This document shows, piece after piece, positions 6,822 to 51,769 of a stretch of DNA of 64,000 nucleotides. The position numbers were made by a program, and so were the translations under genes. Each line of letters begins with the position of its first letter. Within the stretch, counting starts at the first letter, position 1. Where the stretch lies: positions 22,401 to 86,400 of the forward strand of contig JAZQGY010000029.1 of assembly GCA_045540295.1 (NCBI GenBank), written 5' to 3'. The stretch is from Clostridia bacterium. Its GTDB lineage: Bacteria; Bacillota; Clostridia; UMGS1840. Under the pieces are notes generated by a model, which was not told where the DNA came from, did no database searches, and saw nothing but the letters and a program-made list of their open reading frames with translations.

Positions 6822-6897
6822 TGGTGGGAACAATAGGGCTCGAACCTATGACCCTCTGCTTGTAAGGCAGATGCTCTCCCAGCTGAGCTATGCTCCC
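6822..6897 (-). tRNA. tRNA-Val (anticodon TAC)
   Basis: Minus strand reads GGGAGCATAGCTCAGCTGGGAGAGCATCTGCCTTACAAGCAGAGGGTCATAGGTTCGAGCCCTATTGTTCCCACCA. Cloverleaf with encoded CCA. Confidence 0.93.
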
Positions 6898-6900
6898 ATA

Positions 6901-6977
6901 TGGTAGCGGTAGACGGATTTGAACCATCGACACTGCGGGTATGAACCGCATGCTCTAGCCAACTGAGCTATACCGCC
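6901..6977 (-). tRNA. tRNA-Met, elongator type (anticodon CAT)
   Basis: Minus strand reads GGCGGTATAGCTCAGTTGGCTAGAGCATGCGGTTCATACCCGCAGTGTCGATGGTTCAAATCCGTCTACCGCTACCA. Resembles Firmicute elongator Met. Ile2-lysidine identity is not excluded. Confidence 0.85.
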
Positions 6978-8342: not shown

Positions 8343-10010
8343 TTAGAAAAGCCCGGAAATATTGCCGTTTTCGTCTACATCAATTTTTTCGTAAGCGGGC
8401 ACCTTTGGTAAACCGGGCATGGTCATAATCTTACCGGTTAAAACCACGATAAAGCCTGCACCTGCAGAAAGACGAACTTCGGAAACGGTTAAATCAAAAT
8501 CGGTGGGAGCACCCAATTGAGTGGGGTCATCTGAGAAGGAATACTGGGTTTTGGCCATACACACAGGCAGGTTTCCGTAGCCGTTTTCTTTTAAAGTTTG
8601 GATGGCTTTTTCTGCCTGCTTAGTAATGATAATGTCTTTTGCACCGTAAATTTCTTTTGCAATGGTTCTGATTTTATCTTCCACAGATAAATCCAACTCA
8701 TAAATGGGGTGGAAGTCGGAGTCGCCTTCGCAAGCTTCCATAATAGCATTGGCTAAGTCGATGCCGCCTTCGCCGCCTTTTGCAAACACTTCGCTGCGAA
8801 CACACTTGGTGTCATACTTTTTGCAGCATTCTTCAATAACTGCGAATTCGTTTTGGGTGTCAGTATCAAAAGAGTTGATGGCAACCACGGTTTTTAATCC
8901 GAATTTTCTCATATTGACAATGTGACGTTCTAAGTTTACAATTCCTTTTTTCAAAGCTTCCACATTTTCTGCTTTTAAGTCGGTTTTTGCAACGCCGCCG
9001 TTATATTTTAATGCACGAACAGTTGCCACAATTACCACGCAATCGGGTTTTAAGCCTGCTTTTCTGCATTTGATATCCAAGAATTTTTCAGCGCCCAGGT
9101 CAGCACCAAAGCCTGCTTCCGTAATGGTATAATCTGCCATTTTTAATGCCAGTTTTGTTGCAATAATACTGTTGCAGCCGTGAGCAATATTGGCAAAAGG
9201 TCCGCCGTGAATGAAGCAAGGAGAGTTCTCTAAAGTTTGCACTAAGTTGGGTTTAATTGCATCTTTTAACAGTGCGGTCAAAGCGCCTTCCACTTTTAAG
9301 TCTTTTACCTTTACCGGCTGATTTTGATAGTTATATCCAATCACGATTTCGGAAAGCTTGTTTTTTAAGTCTGTCATATCTTCTGCCAGACAGAATACTG
9401 CCATAATTTCGCTGGCAACGGTAATAGAGAAACCGTCTTCACGGGTAACGCCGTCCACTTCGCTGCCTAAACCGATTACGGTATTACGAAGAGCACGGTC
9501 ATTCATATCTACAACACGTTTGATGAGAATTTTTTTAGGATGAATGCCTAAGGCGTTGCCCTGATGCAGATGGTTGTCTACCGCTGCACAAAGCAGGTTG
9601 TTTGCTGCACCAATTGCGTGAAAATCACCGGTAAAATGCAGGTTGATATCTTCCATGGGAACCACCTGGGCATAACCGCCGCCTGCAGCACCGCCTTTTA
9701 CACCAAAAACAGGACCCAAAGAGGGTTCACGAAGGGCAATCATAGCGTTCTTTCCTAATTTTTGGAATGCCTGACCGATTCCCACGGTAGTGGTGGTTTT
9801 TCCTTCTCCGGCGGGAGTGGGGTTGATGGCAGTTACTAAAATCAGTTTTCCGTCTTTTTTATTCTGCTGTTTTTTGATAAAATCAAAGGAAATCTTTGCT
9901 TTGTATTTGCCGTAGCATTCTAAATCGTCTTCCGAAATTCCGATTTGTTTTGCAATTTCGGTGATGGGCTTCATGGCAGCTTTTTGAGCAATTTCGATAT
10001 CTGTTAACAT
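8343..10010 (-). CDS. fhs: formate--tetrahydrofolate ligase
   Basis: 555 aa with [14 protein letters not shown]-loop and typical Fhs N- and C-termini. Confidence 0.95.
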
Positions 10011-10124
10011 CTTTTAAACACCTTCCTGTATGTTTTGTTGAATTGTTGGGACGAAGATGACCGAATGTTAACAGGTAAAACCACCGAAGCAAAGCCGTTC
10101 GGACATAAATCCCATACACCGTTT

Positions 10125-10154
10125 ATTGTATCACTAATGCTTGGTTTTTGTCAA
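10125..10154 (-). promoter_or_regulatory. sigma-A promoter of fhs
   Basis: Minus strand TTGACA (10154-10149), 18-nt spacer, extended -10 TGATACAAT (to 10125). Gives a leader of about 105 nt. Confidence 0.6.
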
Positions 10155-10220
10155 TATCTATTGGGAAAAATACCAAAAAAGATTCCTAGAAAATGGGAAG
10201 AAACGGATTCTGTTTTTTTG

Positions 10221-10249
10221 TTGCATTTTTTATAAAGATGTGTTATACT
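10221..10249 (+). promoter_or_regulatory. sigma-A promoter of cysK
   Basis: TTGCAT (10221-10226), 17-nt spacer, TATACT (10244-10249). Confidence 0.5.
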
Positions 10250-10290
10250 AAGAAAGAAGTTTTAATTCCTTTTGAAAAAGGAGAATTTTT

Positions 10291-11217
10291 ATGAAAAAAG
10301 TATATCAGTCGGTAGAGGAACTGGTAGGAAACACCCCTCTTGTAAGGCTACAGAAAATAGAACATGAAAAGAAACTGTCAGCATCCCTTTATGCCAAACT
10401 GGAAGCCTTTAATCCGGGAGGCTCTGCCAAAGACCGTGTTGCAAAGAAAATGATTGAAGATGCGGAATGTTCCGGCAGATTAAAACCCGGTTCGGTGATA
10501 ATTGAACCTACCAGCGGAAATACCGGAATAGGTCTTTGTATGATTGCTTCTCAAAAAGGCTATCGTACGATTATCGTTATGCCGGAAACTATGTCGGAAG
10601 AACGCAAAATGCTGATGAAGGCATACGGGGGAGAATTGGTATTGACGGATGGAACGTTAGGAATGAAGGGTTCCATCGAAAAGGCAAAGGAACTTGCCAA
10701 AGAAATACCGGATAGCTTTTTACCCGACCAGTTTGCCAATCCCTCCAATCCGATGGCACACTATGAAAGTACCGGCCCAGAAATCTGGGATGCTTTGGAT
10801 GGAAAAGTGGACATCTTTGTGGCAGGCGTTGGCACCGGAGGTACCGTCAGCGGAGTTGGAAAATATTTAAAAGAGCAGAATCCTGATGTGAAAATTATTG
10901 CAGTGGAGCCGGCATCTTCCCCTGTGCTTTCCCAAGGCGTCAGCGGAAGTCACAAAATCCAAGGAATTGGTGCGGGATTTGTACCGGATACTTTAAATAC
11001 AGAAATCTATGATGAAATTATCACAGTTTCCAACGAAGACGCATACCGTTTTGCTGCAGAGCTTGGCAAAACAGAAGGGATCCTTAGCGGAATTTCTTCC
11101 GGCGCTGCATTATGCGGAGCGGTAACTGTTTCCCAACGGGAGGAAAACCGCGGAAAACAGGTGGTAGTTTTGTTTCCCGATACGGGAGAACGTTATTTAT
11201 CTGCGGGAGTTTTTTAG
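10291..11217 (+). CDS. cysK: cysteine synthase A (O-acetylserine sulfhydrylase)
   Basis: PLP-lysine region NPGGSAKDR, TSGNTG loop, GTGGT. 308 aa. Confidence 0.9.
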   Translation: MKKVYQSVEELVGNTPLVRLQKIEHEKKLSASLYAKLEAFNPGGSAKDRVAKKMIEDAECSGRLKPGSVIIEPTSGNTGIGLCMIASQKGYRTIIVMPETMSEERKMLMKAYGGELVLTDGTLGMKGSIEKAKELAKEIPDSFLPDQFANPSNPMAHYESTGPEIWDALDGKVDIFVAGVGTGGTVSGVGKYLKEQNPDVKIIAVEPASSPVLSQGVSGSHKIQGIGAGFVPDTLNTEIYDEIITVSNEDAYRFAAELGKTEGILSGISSGAALCGAVTVSQREENRGKQVVVLFPDTGERYLSAGVF

Positions 11218-19421: not shown

Positions 19422-19680
19422 AAAAAAACTCGTCTCAAACACACTTTGAGACGAGTTTTAATAACCCGCGGTACCACTCAAATTACGGAAAAAATCCGTC
19501 ACTTACCGGGCTCTATCAAGCCCTTTGCCTTAACGCAGCAATACGGAAGGAGCCTACTCATAAACACTTTCGGTCCTCCGACTCAGAGGTGATAAGCCAT
19601 TGGAATGCATCCCCATTGCCTCGCACCAACCGGCAACTCTCTCCAGGTTCTTCAATCCGACCGTCCTCGTCACAGTCGTT
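19422..19680 (-). promoter_or_regulatory. T-box riboswitch leader (apparent specifier AUC, Ile)
   Basis: Minus strand carries a K-turn-like base, AG bay GGAGAGAG, distal loop GGTTGGTGCGAG and T-box sequence AATTTGAGTGGTACCGCGGG (19484-19463). Terminator is AAAACTCGTCTCAAA/TTTGAGACGAGTTTTTTT. Confidence 0.85.
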
Positions 19681-19704
19681 TTTGTGATATTCAAATTTGT
19701 CTGC

Positions 19705-30048: not shown

Positions 30049-30327
30049 AAAAAAACGCCCTCCGCAATCCGTTATCGGATACAGAGGACGAAAATAACAT
30101 TTCCGTGGTACCACCTCAGTTCGTCGCTATCTCACGGTAGCGACCTTATCAGGTACTATCATACCTTAGTTCTATAACGGGAACACCCGTTGCATCCTAC
30201 TTAAAGATTTCTCTTGTTCAGTGCACTGCTAACAGAAGGAATTCGAGAAGGAAGATACCATTGTCTTGCACCAACCGACAACTCTCTTTGCGGCTCTTTC
30301 CAACCTACTGGTTTCTGCTCATCGCAT
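30049..30327 (-). promoter_or_regulatory. T-box riboswitch leader (apparent specifier UUC, Phe)
   Basis: Minus strand carries GCGATGAGCAGAA, S-turn AGTA/GAA, AG bay AAAGAGAG, distal loop GGTTGGTGCAAG and T-box ACTGAGGTGGTACCACGG (30120-30103). Terminator is CGTCCTCTGTATCCG...CGGATTGCGGAGGGCGTTTTTTT. Confidence 0.85.
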
Positions 30328-30349
30328 TTATTATTTAGTTGACACATTA

Positions 30350-34655: not shown

Positions 34656-34751
34656 TTCTTTTCGATCTCCTATCTATAAAATGTAAATAATAAACCATAG
34701 GATGCCTGACTTAAACTGCCAAAATTCGCCTATTTTTCATTCAGCGGTTTT

Positions 34752-34780
34752 ATTATAGCACATCAGTTTTGAAAATGCAA
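34752..34780 (-). promoter_or_regulatory. sigma-A promoter of fba
   Basis: Minus strand TTGCAT (34780-34775), 17-nt spacer, TATAAT (34757-34752). Confidence 0.55.
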
Positions 34781-34922
34781 TAGGAAAACCGAAAAAAATC
34801 AAAAATAACCAAAATAAAACAAAAACAATCAAAGAAAAGCAAAAAGAACACGAAAATAAATAGTTGAATCTATAGGGAAGATTTTCGTTATCCTTCAAAT
34901 CAAAGCTGTTTCATGTCAAGAC

Positions 34923-34997
34923 TGTCATTCTGAGGGAATATATTGACCGAAGAATCTCAGTGTTTTTGTAGGATTCTTCGCTTTGCTCAGAATGACA
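34923..34997. repeat. nested palindromic (hairpin) repeat element
   Basis: Outer arms TGTCATTCTGAG/CTCAGAATGACA (12 bp) and inner arms CGAAGAATC/GATTCTTCG (9 bp), all perfect. Confidence 0.8.
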
Positions 34998-35059
34998 ATT
35001 TTTGAAAGTGTGCTCCAATCAGTATTCCATAAAGGATTTTTTGATTCTTAAAAAAATAC

Positions 35060-35088
35060 TTGTATTTTTTAGTAATCTGTGATATAAT
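35060..35088 (+). promoter_or_regulatory. sigma-A promoter of the candidate structured RNA
   Basis: TTGTAT (35060-35065), 17-nt spacer, TATAAT (35083-35088). Confidence 0.55.
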
Positions 35089-35094
35089 GTATAT

Positions 35095-35298
35095 GCTACA
35101 TTTTTACTCAGTTTTTATAAACAGAGAAATATTATTTTGCCCAGAGGGTACGCTAAGTAAAAAGCGTACGCTCTTGTTTCATCATACTCTGGGCGAATTT
35201 GTCTGTGTTATGAAGTAAAAGTGTAGCAACTTACAGAAACGGAGTCAGTACGTTTTTTGGTGCGTGGCTCTGCTTTTAAGTAGGCTACGCACTTTTTT
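35095..35298 (+). ncRNA. unclassified structured RNA / cis-regulatory leader upstream of a SLOG (DUF1273) gene
   Basis: 14-bp closing helix 35095-35108/35214-35227, with inner helices ACAGA/TCTGT, GCCCAGAG/CTCTGGGC and GTACGCT/AGCGTAC. Followed by terminator GTGCGTGGC...GCTACGCAC+TTTTTT (35260-35298). Confidence 0.45.
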
Positions 35299-35315
35299 AT
35301 TTGGGGTATGACAAT

Positions 35316-35774
35316 ATGAAACGAGTAACCTTTTGCGGACACCGGGAGCTATCTTTGAAAGAAAAATCTTTTTTAGAGATACGATTGTATTATGAATTGC
35401 AGATATTGATTAAACACGGTGCCGAGGAGTTTTTGCTTGGCGGTTATGGTGACTTTGATTTGTTGTCTGCAAAAGTGGTCAAGCAATTAAAACAGAAATA
35501 CCCTCATATCCGATCTGTTTTGGTACTTGCTTATTTGCATCAGAGGTATGAAGAAGATTTATATGATGAGATTGAATATCCACCTTTGGAAAAGGTTCCA
35601 AAACCACTTGCAATCATTAAACGGAATGAATATATGGTAAAACAATCGGATACCATTGTTTCCTATGTCATATACAGCTTTGGTGGTGCAGCACAAACAT
35701 TTCAATTTGCTCTGAGAAATCAAAAAACTGTCATTTGTATGGCGAACTGTAACAAAAAAGGAACTGATTTTTAA
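35316..35774 (+). CDS. SLOG-fold DUF1273/YpsA-like protein
   Basis: N-terminal VTFCGHR motif (the TGHR type of the DUF1273 family), GGYGDFD, about 150 aa. I prefer the ATG at 35316 over the TTG at 35301. Confidence 0.65.
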   Translation: MKRVTFCGHRELSLKEKSFLEIRLYYELQILIKHGAEEFLLGGYGDFDLLSAKVVKQLKQKYPHIRSVLVLAYLHQRYEEDLYDEIEYPPLEKVPKPLAIIKRNEYMVKQSDTIVSYVIYSFGGAAQTFQFALRNQKTVICMANCNKKGTDF

Positions 35775-35799
35775 AATAATCAGCTCCTTTTTTCGTTTA

Positions 35800-47068: not shown

Positions 47069-47088
47069 AAAAAGAAAACACGTTATTT

Positions 47089-47170
47089 TCCCTACGTTGG
47101 CATTATCCAAATCAGGTTACGGGTTAAAGTGCAACACACTTACTCTCAGCCGACTTACGGTCAGCTCCCC
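47089..47170 (-). promoter_or_regulatory. TPP (THI-box) riboswitch aptamer
   Basis: Minus strand GGGGAGC...GGCTGAGAG...ACCCGTAACCTGATTTGGATAATGCCAACGTAGGGA matches the THI-box core (CTGAGA, ACCTGAT, GGATAATGCC, GCGTAGGGA-like). Confidence 0.9.
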
Positions 47171-47207
47171 AAATCTTTTTCATTTTAGTATTTCGAAATA
47201 CAAGTGC

Positions 47208-51478: not shown

Positions 51479-51554
<76 letters not shown>

Positions 51555-51632: not shown

Positions 51633-51650
51633 TCTTTTAAACTTAATAGA

Positions 51651-51728
51651 CGGGAGCTTGTAGTACAGGCTGAGAGGAAGGTGTAACCTTCGACCGACAA
51701 CCTGATTTGGATAATGCCAACGTAGGGA
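51651..51728 (+). promoter_or_regulatory. TPP (THI-box) riboswitch aptamer
   Basis: CGGGAGC...GGCTGAGAGGAAGG...ACCTTCGACCGACAACCTGATTTGGATAATGCCAACGTAGGGA. Confidence 0.9.
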
Positions 51729-51769
51729 TGCCTAAGACACTTGGTGTCAGGAGGAACAGTGCAATTTAT

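Follow-up and report, generated by a model that had tools for sequence, protein, structure and literature searches.

A candidate transcription-attenuation leader upstream of a SLOG gene represents an uncatalogued, multi-copy RNA family of gut Clostridia and their prophages

In the OFF riboswitch platforms of Firmicutes, such as SAM-I, FMN and TPP, a promoter-proximal closing helix (P1) shares its 3' strand with an antiterminator, the competitor of an intrinsic terminator. TTNTTT pauses dependent on NusG lie between the antiterminator strands in several B. subtilis riboswitches (PMC11602163). T-box leaders begin with a long, irregular 5' rod whose 3' side bears a functional internal loop, and then offer the same choice between antiterminator and terminator. 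The trp-type, PyrR, TRAP, LicT/SacY-RAT (ribonucleic antiterminator) and ANTAR attenuators use a chain of mutually exclusive helices, in which 1:2 is the anti-antiterminator, 2:3 the antiterminator and 3:4 the terminator. In the countertranscript attenuation of pT181, pIP501 and pAMβ1, a segment presented in a loop pairs with a leader stretch that otherwise pre-empts the terminator, and termination follows. The current work concerns an element of comparable layout at 35060-35298 of a 64,000-nucleotide (nt) stretch from a Clostridia bacterium (GenBank assembly GCA_045540295.1, contig JAZQGY010000029.1, positions 22,401 to 86,400; this whole stretch is called the window). Here a promoter, a rod-like RNA and a terminator precede a gene for a YpsA-like SLOG protein.

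The element belongs to a new family of transcription-attenuation leaders, whose mechanism is of a known kind and follows riboswitch-like logic. Its members are multi-copy, uncatalogued leader RNAs of about 130-210 nt, whose hosts are uncultured gut Clostridia and their prophages, and the element is conserved in about 100 loci altogether. We consider it likely, with a probability of about 0.75, that it is a promoter-proximal leader that controls the downstream gene by conditional intrinsic termination. With OFF riboswitches it has in common the shared P1 3' strand and the T-rich pause motif of the TTNTTT type, but it differs in its junction-less variable rod, a near-invariant P1 of 12-14 base pairs (bp), a largely invariant platform and diverse non-metabolic genes. 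Unlike T-box leaders, it precedes genes unrelated to amino-acid supply, and a UGGN-like motif is not conserved. The chain of exclusive helices is that of the classical attenuators, whereas a leader peptide and (G/U)AG repeats are lacking and segment 1 sits inside an additional 5' clamp (P1 and P2); its invariant loop and stem nucleotides are compatible with a protein effector, as in the protein-dependent attenuators. In contrast to the plasmid systems, the "antisense" segment lies upstream in the same strand and transcript, its action in trans is hypothetical, and no plasmid copy is present. What sets the family apart is a long P1 of invariant sequence, a rod that varies, an invariant platform, multi-copy spread together with its own promoter, carriage by phages, and a pairing that covaries yet cannot be accommodated in cis.

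In the promoter, the -35 hexamer TTGTAT (35060-65) is separated by 17 nt from TATAAT (35083-88), which is preceded by an extended -10 TG at 35080-81 (TGaTATAAT, 35080-88). A consensus promoter scan did not list this site because the -35 hexamer fits TTGACA at just 3 of 6 positions; in alignments of the homologous loci, TTG, TG and TATAAT show no or almost no variation. The RNA is predicted to start at or adjoining G35095. The rod of 133 nt (35095-35227) has a minimum free energy (MFE) of -51.4 kcal/mol (z = -7.2), equalled by none of 200 shuffles, and the predicted transcript 35091-35300, which consists of the rod, a weak hairpin and the terminator, reaches -81 kcal/mol (z = -8.9). All energies are nearest-neighbour predictions, in which pseudoknots and kinetics are left out. 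A search for inverted repeats regained the closing helix, the GCCCAGAG/CUCUGGGC helix and the apical arm. The core of the P1 5' strand, GCUACA(C)A, is nearly invariant family-wide and sits at the extreme 5' end of the RNA, and the A5 run in the loop of the apical hairpin (H1; run at 35159-63) is also found family-wide. In the terminator, GUGCGUGGC (35260-68) pairs with GCUACGCAC (35284-92) with a duplex energy of -21.0 kcal/mol, followed by U6 (35293-98), which stops 17 nt upstream of the ATG at 35316. The initial annotation, made from the letters of the DNA, had described this promoter, a 133-nt rod with the closing helix, the inner helix and an apical arm with a 17-nt 3' bulge, and a 9-bp terminator with U6; all of these were recovered, and the extended -10 TG was added. 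The coordinates are collected in Table 1.

Table 1. Features of the leader, of the gene behind it and of other annotated elements in the window
Feature	Position	Strand	Basis
Sigma-A-type promoter	35060-35088	+	Sequence; near-invariance in homologous loci
P1 5' strand, GCUACAUUUUUACU	35095-35108	+	MFE fold, repeat search, alignment, covariation
P2 region, 5' strands of the variable middle rod helices	35115-35146	+	MFE fold, compensatory changes between species, strand asymmetry and G·U usage favouring sense
Apical hairpin H1, GUACGCU/AGCGUAC, loop AAGUAAAA	35148-35169 (35148-54 with 35163-69)	+	Fold, repeat search, alignments
Segment 1: A5 run, H1 3' strand and beginning of 3' bulge (AAAAAGCGUACGCUCUUGUUUC)	35159-35180	+	Complementarity to segment 2
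17-nt 3' bulge of the rod (GCUCUUGUUUCAUCAUA)	35170-35186	+	MFE fold, alignment
Middle rod helices, 3' strands	35187-35213	+	MFE fold
P1 3' strand, AGUAAAAGUGUAGC	35214-35227	+	Folds; two alternative partners, P1 5' strand and terminator 3' arm
Segment 2: linker (GAAACGGAGU, 35236-45), CAGUACG and invariant U6 tract (35253-58)	about 35228-35258	+	Two alternative partners, segment 1 and terminator 5' arm
Intrinsic terminator with arms at 35260-69 (5') and 35283-92 (3'), apical part 35270-82 and U6 35293-98	35259-35298	+	Duplex energy; stem covariation
Alternative long antiterminator hairpin	35221-35290	+	P1 3' strand and segment 2 with both terminator arms; loop around the U6 tract
Shine-Dalgarno (SD)-like GGGG (35303-06) and YpsA-like SLOG gene, 152 amino acids (aa)	35303-35774 (ATG 35316, stop 35774)	+	Pfam, PDB match
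Inverted repeat (19 nt), SLOG gene end	35754-35793	.	Repeat search (I1), map of open reading frames
T-box leaders (RF00230)	19444-19682 and 30081-30331	-	93.9 and 112.9 bits
TPP riboswitch aptamers	47072-47181 (-), 51642-51746 (+)		62 and 58.8 bits
tRNA genes	6825-6977 (-), 51479-51551 (+)		Rfam

Conservation can be seen in loci with orthologous SLOG genes and in metagenomic copies. Among 80 species-representative loci encoding SLOG relatives that were fetched, the DNA upstream of the SLOG gene could be aligned with the leader in 17, including 13 of the 20 closest relatives. Protein identity among the leader-bearing SLOG loci is just about 50-57%, whereas matches to the RNA profile have E-values as low as 1e-56 to 1e-68. 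In these alignments, the 5' end UGCUACA, its partner UGUGUAGCAAC and the promoter hexamers are invariant, and both the apical hairpin with the A5 loop and the 3' part (…YUGCGUUUUU-GUGCG…CGCAC-UUUUUU) are strongly conserved. The middle rod helices change in sequence from locus to locus with pairing kept by compensatory changes, and two loci, L004 and L073, contain a compensated change in P1, UGCGACA/UGUCGCA. As in known attenuators, an intrinsic terminator stands between promoter and start codon, here in all aligned members. The SLOG gene is the sole downstream gene that stays with the leader across species.

The metagenomic copies were collected with a pattern for the 3' half of the element, GTGTAGCAAC-N(8-30)-CGTTTTT-N(1-2)-GTGCG, which gave 72 metagenome loci and 2 viral-contig loci. 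Almost all of them hold the whole element, including a near-consensus TTGACA-17-TGnTATAAT promoter, and a covariance model of the 3' platform gave 80 matches of 28-72 bits. Conservation and covariation in relatives, by which the initial annotation had proposed to check its reading, were thus found in the 17 species loci and the 72 metagenomic copies, with compensatory pairs. Its further question, whether homologues always precede DUF1273 genes, has a negative answer. SLOG lies downstream in just 2 of the 72 metagenomic copies, which rules out a SLOG-specific leader; for the same reason, a ligand guessed from SLOG biology is poorly backed.

The remaining downstream genes form 42 unrelated groups. 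Those with Pfam support encode BspA-type leucine-rich repeat (LRR), SHOCT, zinc-ribbon, SNF2 helicase, DUF4236, DUF6946 and HTH_3 regulator proteins, and many of the downstream products are lipoproteins by sequence. Near-identical leaders stand before unrelated genes. Two copies per contig were found in L102 (10-269 and 510-774), L141 (460-710 and 715-930) and L084 (923-976 and 1199-1256). In L141, the terminator of the first copy directly abuts the promoter of the second; in L102, each copy precedes a duplicate of one short gene. Positions 9036-11107 of an IMG/VR contig (L081) are a prophage late region with tape measure, Dit, tail, holin and endolysin genes, in which the leader and a gene for a 148-aa lipoprotein directly follow the endolysin, the classical moron position. 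Records of uncultured gut phages gave 2 further matches, and in a plasmid search no plasmid carried the element. The regulon resembles those of c-di-GMP-I/II riboswitches in Clostridia, which are likewise multi-copy, stand before surface, adhesin and hypothetical genes and are in part phage-borne; however, there is neither sequence or structure similarity nor a GEMM match, and the likeness is at the regulon level only.

One subfamily (L092, L130, L099, L086, L138, L144, L106, L109, L137 and L122) has an almost identical promoter and leader (GGCACAAGAAAAATATTGACATTCGGGG…) across samples and always lies upstream of genes for paralogous LRR surface proteins of the BspA type, which reach 1508 aa. 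Its spacer from terminator to start codon is unusually long, 144-156 nt, in most members, and 14 nt in L106/L110. Of the 20 metagenomic loci that were scanned with Rfam, 5 (L139, L127, L102, L096 and L142) have tRNA genes no more than a few kb from the leader, and such loci might be genomic islands or integrated elements.

The 3' half of the leader can form several helices that exclude each other. Four segments are distinguished: segment 1 (35159-80), segment 2 (linker, YUGCG and U5-6; 35231-58), segment 3 (terminator 5' arm, 35260-69; inner part 35268-77) and segment 4 (terminator 3' arm, 35283-92). The initial annotation had proposed that 35221-27 may pair with 35284-90 instead of with the 5' strand of P1. 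This pairing is real as far as duplex energy can tell (-11.7 kcal/mol in the window), and the competition for the P1 3' strand stands, but the antiterminator proves to be much larger, since the linker and YUGCG also pair, with covariation, with the terminator 5' arm. When the 3' domain, from the P1 3' strand through the terminator, is folded in isolation, a single long hairpin is the MFE structure in 53-56 of 60 unique members. Its base joins UGUGUAGC to the terminator 3' arm, by 5 bp or more in 52 of the 60; higher up, the linker and YUGCG are paired to the terminator 5' arm, and the invariant GUUUUUCG is left as the loop. In the isolated domain, this antiterminator beats the best fold that keeps the terminator by a median of 5.4 kcal/mol.

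Pairing between segments was also compared without alignment, as RNAduplex energies of cognate and non-cognate combinations among 46 unique members with 2000 permutations. Segment 1 with segment 2 gave -7.7 kcal/mol for cognate and -5.1 for non-cognate combinations, and segment 2 with segment 3 gave -8.1 and -4.7; none of the 2000 permutations was as good in either case. As a control for mimicry, segment 1 with segment 3 showed no cognate advantage, and segment 2 with the inner part of the terminator 3' arm showed a small one (-3.1 versus -2.1 kcal/mol; 0 of 2000). In the outer part of the 1:2 helix, the first four positions are paired in most members, and significant covariation is found at positions 3 and 5. 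In the window, the duplex of segments 1 and 2 has -20.2 kcal/mol and that of segment 2 with the terminator 5' arm -17.6 kcal/mol. According to the geometric model, 1:2 pairing cannot coexist in cis with P1 while P2 is closed, because only AAC links P1 to segment 2 and the length of the rod varies widely; a cis kissing interaction or pseudoknot between the apical loop and the U-tract was ruled out on the same geometry.

Whole leaders were folded as well. The full-length MFE structure of the window contains the rod and the terminator (-80.3 kcal/mol); when the P1 5' strand is blocked, the upper rod and the long antiterminator are formed instead (-68.2 kcal/mol), and this shift is also the trend of the family. 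P1 is kept in the full-length MFE structure of 56 of 63 members. With the first 12 nt blocked, the number of members that form the terminator falls from 33 to 15 of 63, and the antiterminator is found in 46 of 63. Compensatory pairs occur in both P1 and the terminator, pairs 9-12 of P1 covary, and RNAalifold on MAFFT alignments recovered these two helices alone. The P1 3' strand can in addition form a mini-hairpin with the first bases of the linker, nnUGU[GUAGCA]ACAnn (alignment A5, columns 2-5 with 12-15; about 35219-35232 in the window), whose outermost pair is changed on both sides in 19 of 39 sequences. This hairpin is a possible third partner of the P1 3' strand.

A near-consensus promoter is predicted to start the RNA at GCUACA, and the first 12-14 nt of the RNA pair with UGUGUAGC about 100 nt downstream, which forms P1 and closes an irregular rod of variable length. 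From these folds, the following mechanism can be proposed. Formation of P1 would withdraw the base of the antiterminator and favour the terminator, and transcription would stop. If the P1 5' strand were kept unpaired, the long antiterminator would form and RNA polymerase would read into the gene. The invariant U5-6 between the antiterminator strands may be a NusG-type pause that times this decision; the U-tract of segment 2 fits the TTNTTT motif, and such a role would account for its invariance. The 1:2 pairing may serve as a second anti-antiterminator, acting either in the P1-open state or between molecules. A trans-acting factor, protein or RNA, is more likely to be the effector than a small metabolite, because the P1 sequence is nearly invariant and the antiterminator loop is sequence-invariant; it would recognize the P1 strand or duplex or the antiterminator loop. 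The SLOG gene is a candidate member of the regulon that is tied to the signal, and one may speculate that its product could even be the factor.

Several points weigh against conditional termination as described here. With P1 intact, the full-length MFE structure contains the terminator in just 33 of 63 members, which leaves the default state uncertain. P1, of 12-14 bp, is synthesized before its competitor and is more stable; a purely cis-acting thermodynamic switch is therefore unlikely, and one would need a blocker of P1. Where the P1 3' strand meets the terminator 3' arm at the foot of the antiterminator, the sequence is conserved rather than covarying, and in L004 and L073 the change in P1 has no matching change in the terminator. 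In the plain MAFFT alignment, column covariation of the antiterminator is not significant (71.3% versus 70.7% paired cells); its register is clearly the best, and the count is weak because of register shifts. In an alignment fitted to the covariance model (80 matches), and thus biased to the modelled structure, 78 cells are changed on both sides, where shuffles give 50.7±7.3 (0 of 500), and the covariation score is 0.137 against 0.122 (4 of 500), shuffle-based statistics that are inflated by kinship among the metagenomic copies. Start site, termination site and read-through are predictions throughout. On the other side, a conserved fold that is mutually exclusive with the terminator, as an attenuator needs, was found by each of the three approaches (53-56 of 60 members; 0 of 2000 permutations; 0 of 500 shuffles).

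Among the rival explanations, a small-molecule OFF riboswitch comes closest, in which the rod is the aptamer and a ligand stabilizes P1 or the rod and so favours the terminator. The ligand might be nucleotide-derived, given the long-standing association with SLOG and a regulon of surface and accessory genes like that of c-di-GMP. The layout is classic in that the P1 3' strand is common to P1 and the antiterminator, and the energies of antiterminator and terminator are nearly balanced even with P1 formed, where a modest binding energy could tip the outcome; many copies before diverse genes, and a leader kept upstream of orthologous SLOG genes across species, also fit. The rod itself does not look like an aptamer, however. 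Neither a multi-helix junction nor a conserved internal-loop core is seen, its length is very variable (a 5' strand of about 19 to more than 50 nt by manual count, possibly with an extra inserted hairpin), and the invariant nucleotides are in P1, the A5 run and the expression platform rather than in a pocket. A long (12-14 bp), near-invariant P1 on a variable, junction-less rod is atypical of a small-molecule aptamer, no Rfam class matches, and the regulon has no metabolic theme; a riboswitch is thus judged unlikely. Somewhat less probable still is a self-antisense or dimerizing RNA, in which the 1:2 complementarity would be an intermolecular code: finished leaders would expose both segments and form homodimers or capture segment 2 of nascent leaders of the same code, which would block the antiterminator and enforce termination as a dosage feedback akin to that of pT181 and pIP501, with SLOG as a conceivable source of the trans factor or signal. 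The strength of the 1:2 duplex in the window, its locus-by-locus covariation and the AAC gap, which sterically bars the cis pairing with P1 and P2 formed (geometry and blocked-strand folds), speak for such a code, as do the position of segment 1 in loop and bulge, like the recognition elements of antisense RNAs, and the near-identical leaders with the same pairing code before unrelated genes. The same complementarity could nevertheless work in cis once P1 is open, and it may partly follow from mimicry, since segment 1 resembles the terminator 5' arm.

The initial annotation had left the choice between a responsive leader and an independent small RNA (sRNA). A leader is the likelier of the two. 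A trans-acting sRNA gene that merely lies upstream of other genes would have its own strong promoter and terminator, as seen here, and its RNA would be stable with both ends base-paired; a few copies indeed have no close downstream open reading frame (L136/L152, L101 and L131). But 61 of the 81 unique copies are followed, on the same strand and at most 60 nt past the U-tract (median 26 nt), by a reading frame with an SD-like motif, a gap so short that no room is left for a separate promoter, and the conserved alternatives of antiterminator and terminator would be purposeless in a plain sRNA, which makes this explanation improbable. Lowest of all stands a repeat that acts as DNA, either an inverton flanked by the inverted repeats of P1 or a selfish element like a miniature inverted-repeat transposable element (MITE). 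The element is multi-copy, its inverted repeats GCTACACA…TGTGTAGC are nearly invariant, the types of downstream genes are often phase-variable, and copies lie in a prophage and, at some loci, within a few kb of tRNA genes. Yet none of about 80 copies has an inverted interior; apparent reverse matches are the same elements read on the opposite strand, because GUU…AAC extends P1. In 58 of 61 unique rods, the fold of the sense strand is more stable than that of the antisense strand (mean -43.7 versus -37.1 kcal/mol, p ≈ 7e-11), and the 61 rods contain 201 G·U pairs on the sense strand and 81 on the antisense strand. An inverton is ruled out by the lack of inverted copies and by G·U mismatches specific to the sense strand, and a MITE by the conserved unit, which spans the -35 hexamer to the U-tract and does not end in inverted repeats; variation within the rod is moreover compensatory. 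The hairpin-rich stretch upstream of SLOG is a real RNA.

Known RNA families give no match. Searched at gathering thresholds with all 4227 models of Rfam 15, the window contains two T-box leaders, two TPP riboswitches and three tRNAs, all outside the element; the region 34880-35420 at E ≤ 10 gave chance microRNA and sRNA matches far below threshold, 20 other loci gave tRNAs alone, and L111 at E ≤ 5 gave nothing. A known RNA family is ruled out by these searches, in agreement with the initial annotation, which could not fit the RNA to the riboswitch classes it considered or to 6S RNA. Searches of the literature by sequence and by keywords gave no description of the element. RF00230 has no match at 35060-35300 and no T-box sequence was seen there; a T-box-like UGGN loop was rejected, as GGU before the A5 run is not universal and group 1 has UGU. 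A trp-type leader-peptide attenuator was likewise rejected, the leader having neither a conserved start codon nor a conserved SD motif and an AUG or UUG occurring in the linker of some members only. No PyrR site or other leader family came from Rfam; RAT sites and ANTAR hairpins were not checked by eye. In a comparison with type III toxin-antitoxin systems, the element appears by eye to be a single non-repetitive rod (the repeat search covered inverted repeats, and no tandem-repeat search was run), and its mutually unrelated downstream genes are a poor fit to a single type III toxin family.

If confirmed, the family would be a new and abundant class of attenuation leaders in poorly studied gut Clostridia and their phages. 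A portable cassette of promoter, leader and terminator, about 200 bp in size, would then control surface, lipoprotein, zinc-ribbon, defence-like and prophage moron genes, and its sharing would point to a global signal or factor that gates the expression of accessory genes in these organisms. It would also be a compact natural multi-state switch acting during transcription, in which three or four helices exclude one another and a pause motif is built in. Should the intermolecular code be true, a sense-encoded self-antisense feedback would determine how strongly dozens of accessory genes and phage morons are expressed. Pipelines based on Rfam overlook the family, and many 5' regions in gut metagenomes are hence unannotated. 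The orthologues of the YpsA-like SLOG gene gain a regulatory context that is open to study.

The product of the SLOG gene, annotated at the outset as SLOG/DUF1273, is indeed placed in Pfam PF06908 (YpsA/SLOG) with 31.2 bits against a gathering cut-off of 27.7 (E = 2.6e-7), the match covering residues 19-77 only. It belongs to a family of proteins of about 140 aa from uncultured Clostridia, among which the N-terminus MKxVTFCGH is conserved. YpsA of B. subtilis (PF06908, PDB 2nx2) has the same SLOG fold family, including the region of the glycine-rich motif of the GGxGxFD type, but is longer (about 180 aa versus about 140-150 aa), and the similarity is distant (E = 0.0065). No gpsB-like gene was found among the annotated neighbour genes in the window. 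The gene order of the nearest relative, L001, is that of the window: fba, the RNA with SLOG, and glgA. The inverted repeat where the SLOG gene ends is likely a terminator common to SLOG and the convergent glgA, to judge from its sequence and position, in which case SLOG would be monocistronic. The 3' bulge of the rod contains a stretch (35173-35182, CUUGUUUCAU) that is 90% complementary to the start-codon region of SLOG (35316-35325, AUGAAACGAG). This match is probably due to chance, because AUGAAA is a common start; in L009, the sole locus compared, by eye, it is partial.

Between the divergent fba gene and the leader promoter, a nested palindrome of 111 nt is located at 34905-35015 (GUCAUUCUGAG…CUCAGAAUGAC around CGAAGAAUC…GAUUCUUCG), with an MFE of -36.7 kcal/mol (z = -4.3). 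Neither the window nor the fetched loci contained a second copy of it. In this intergenic region, the match to L001 is confined to 34665-34845, and 34846-35060, with the palindrome, would seem to be an insertion peculiar to this genome. Upstream of fba, an A-rich tract of low complexity (caaaaataaccaaaataaaacaaaaacaatcaaagaaaagcaaaaagaac…, 34760-34870) is 89% conserved in L001. Farther away in the window, the T-box leader at 30081-30331 lies just downstream of an open reading frame for prolyl-tRNA synthetase on the same strand.

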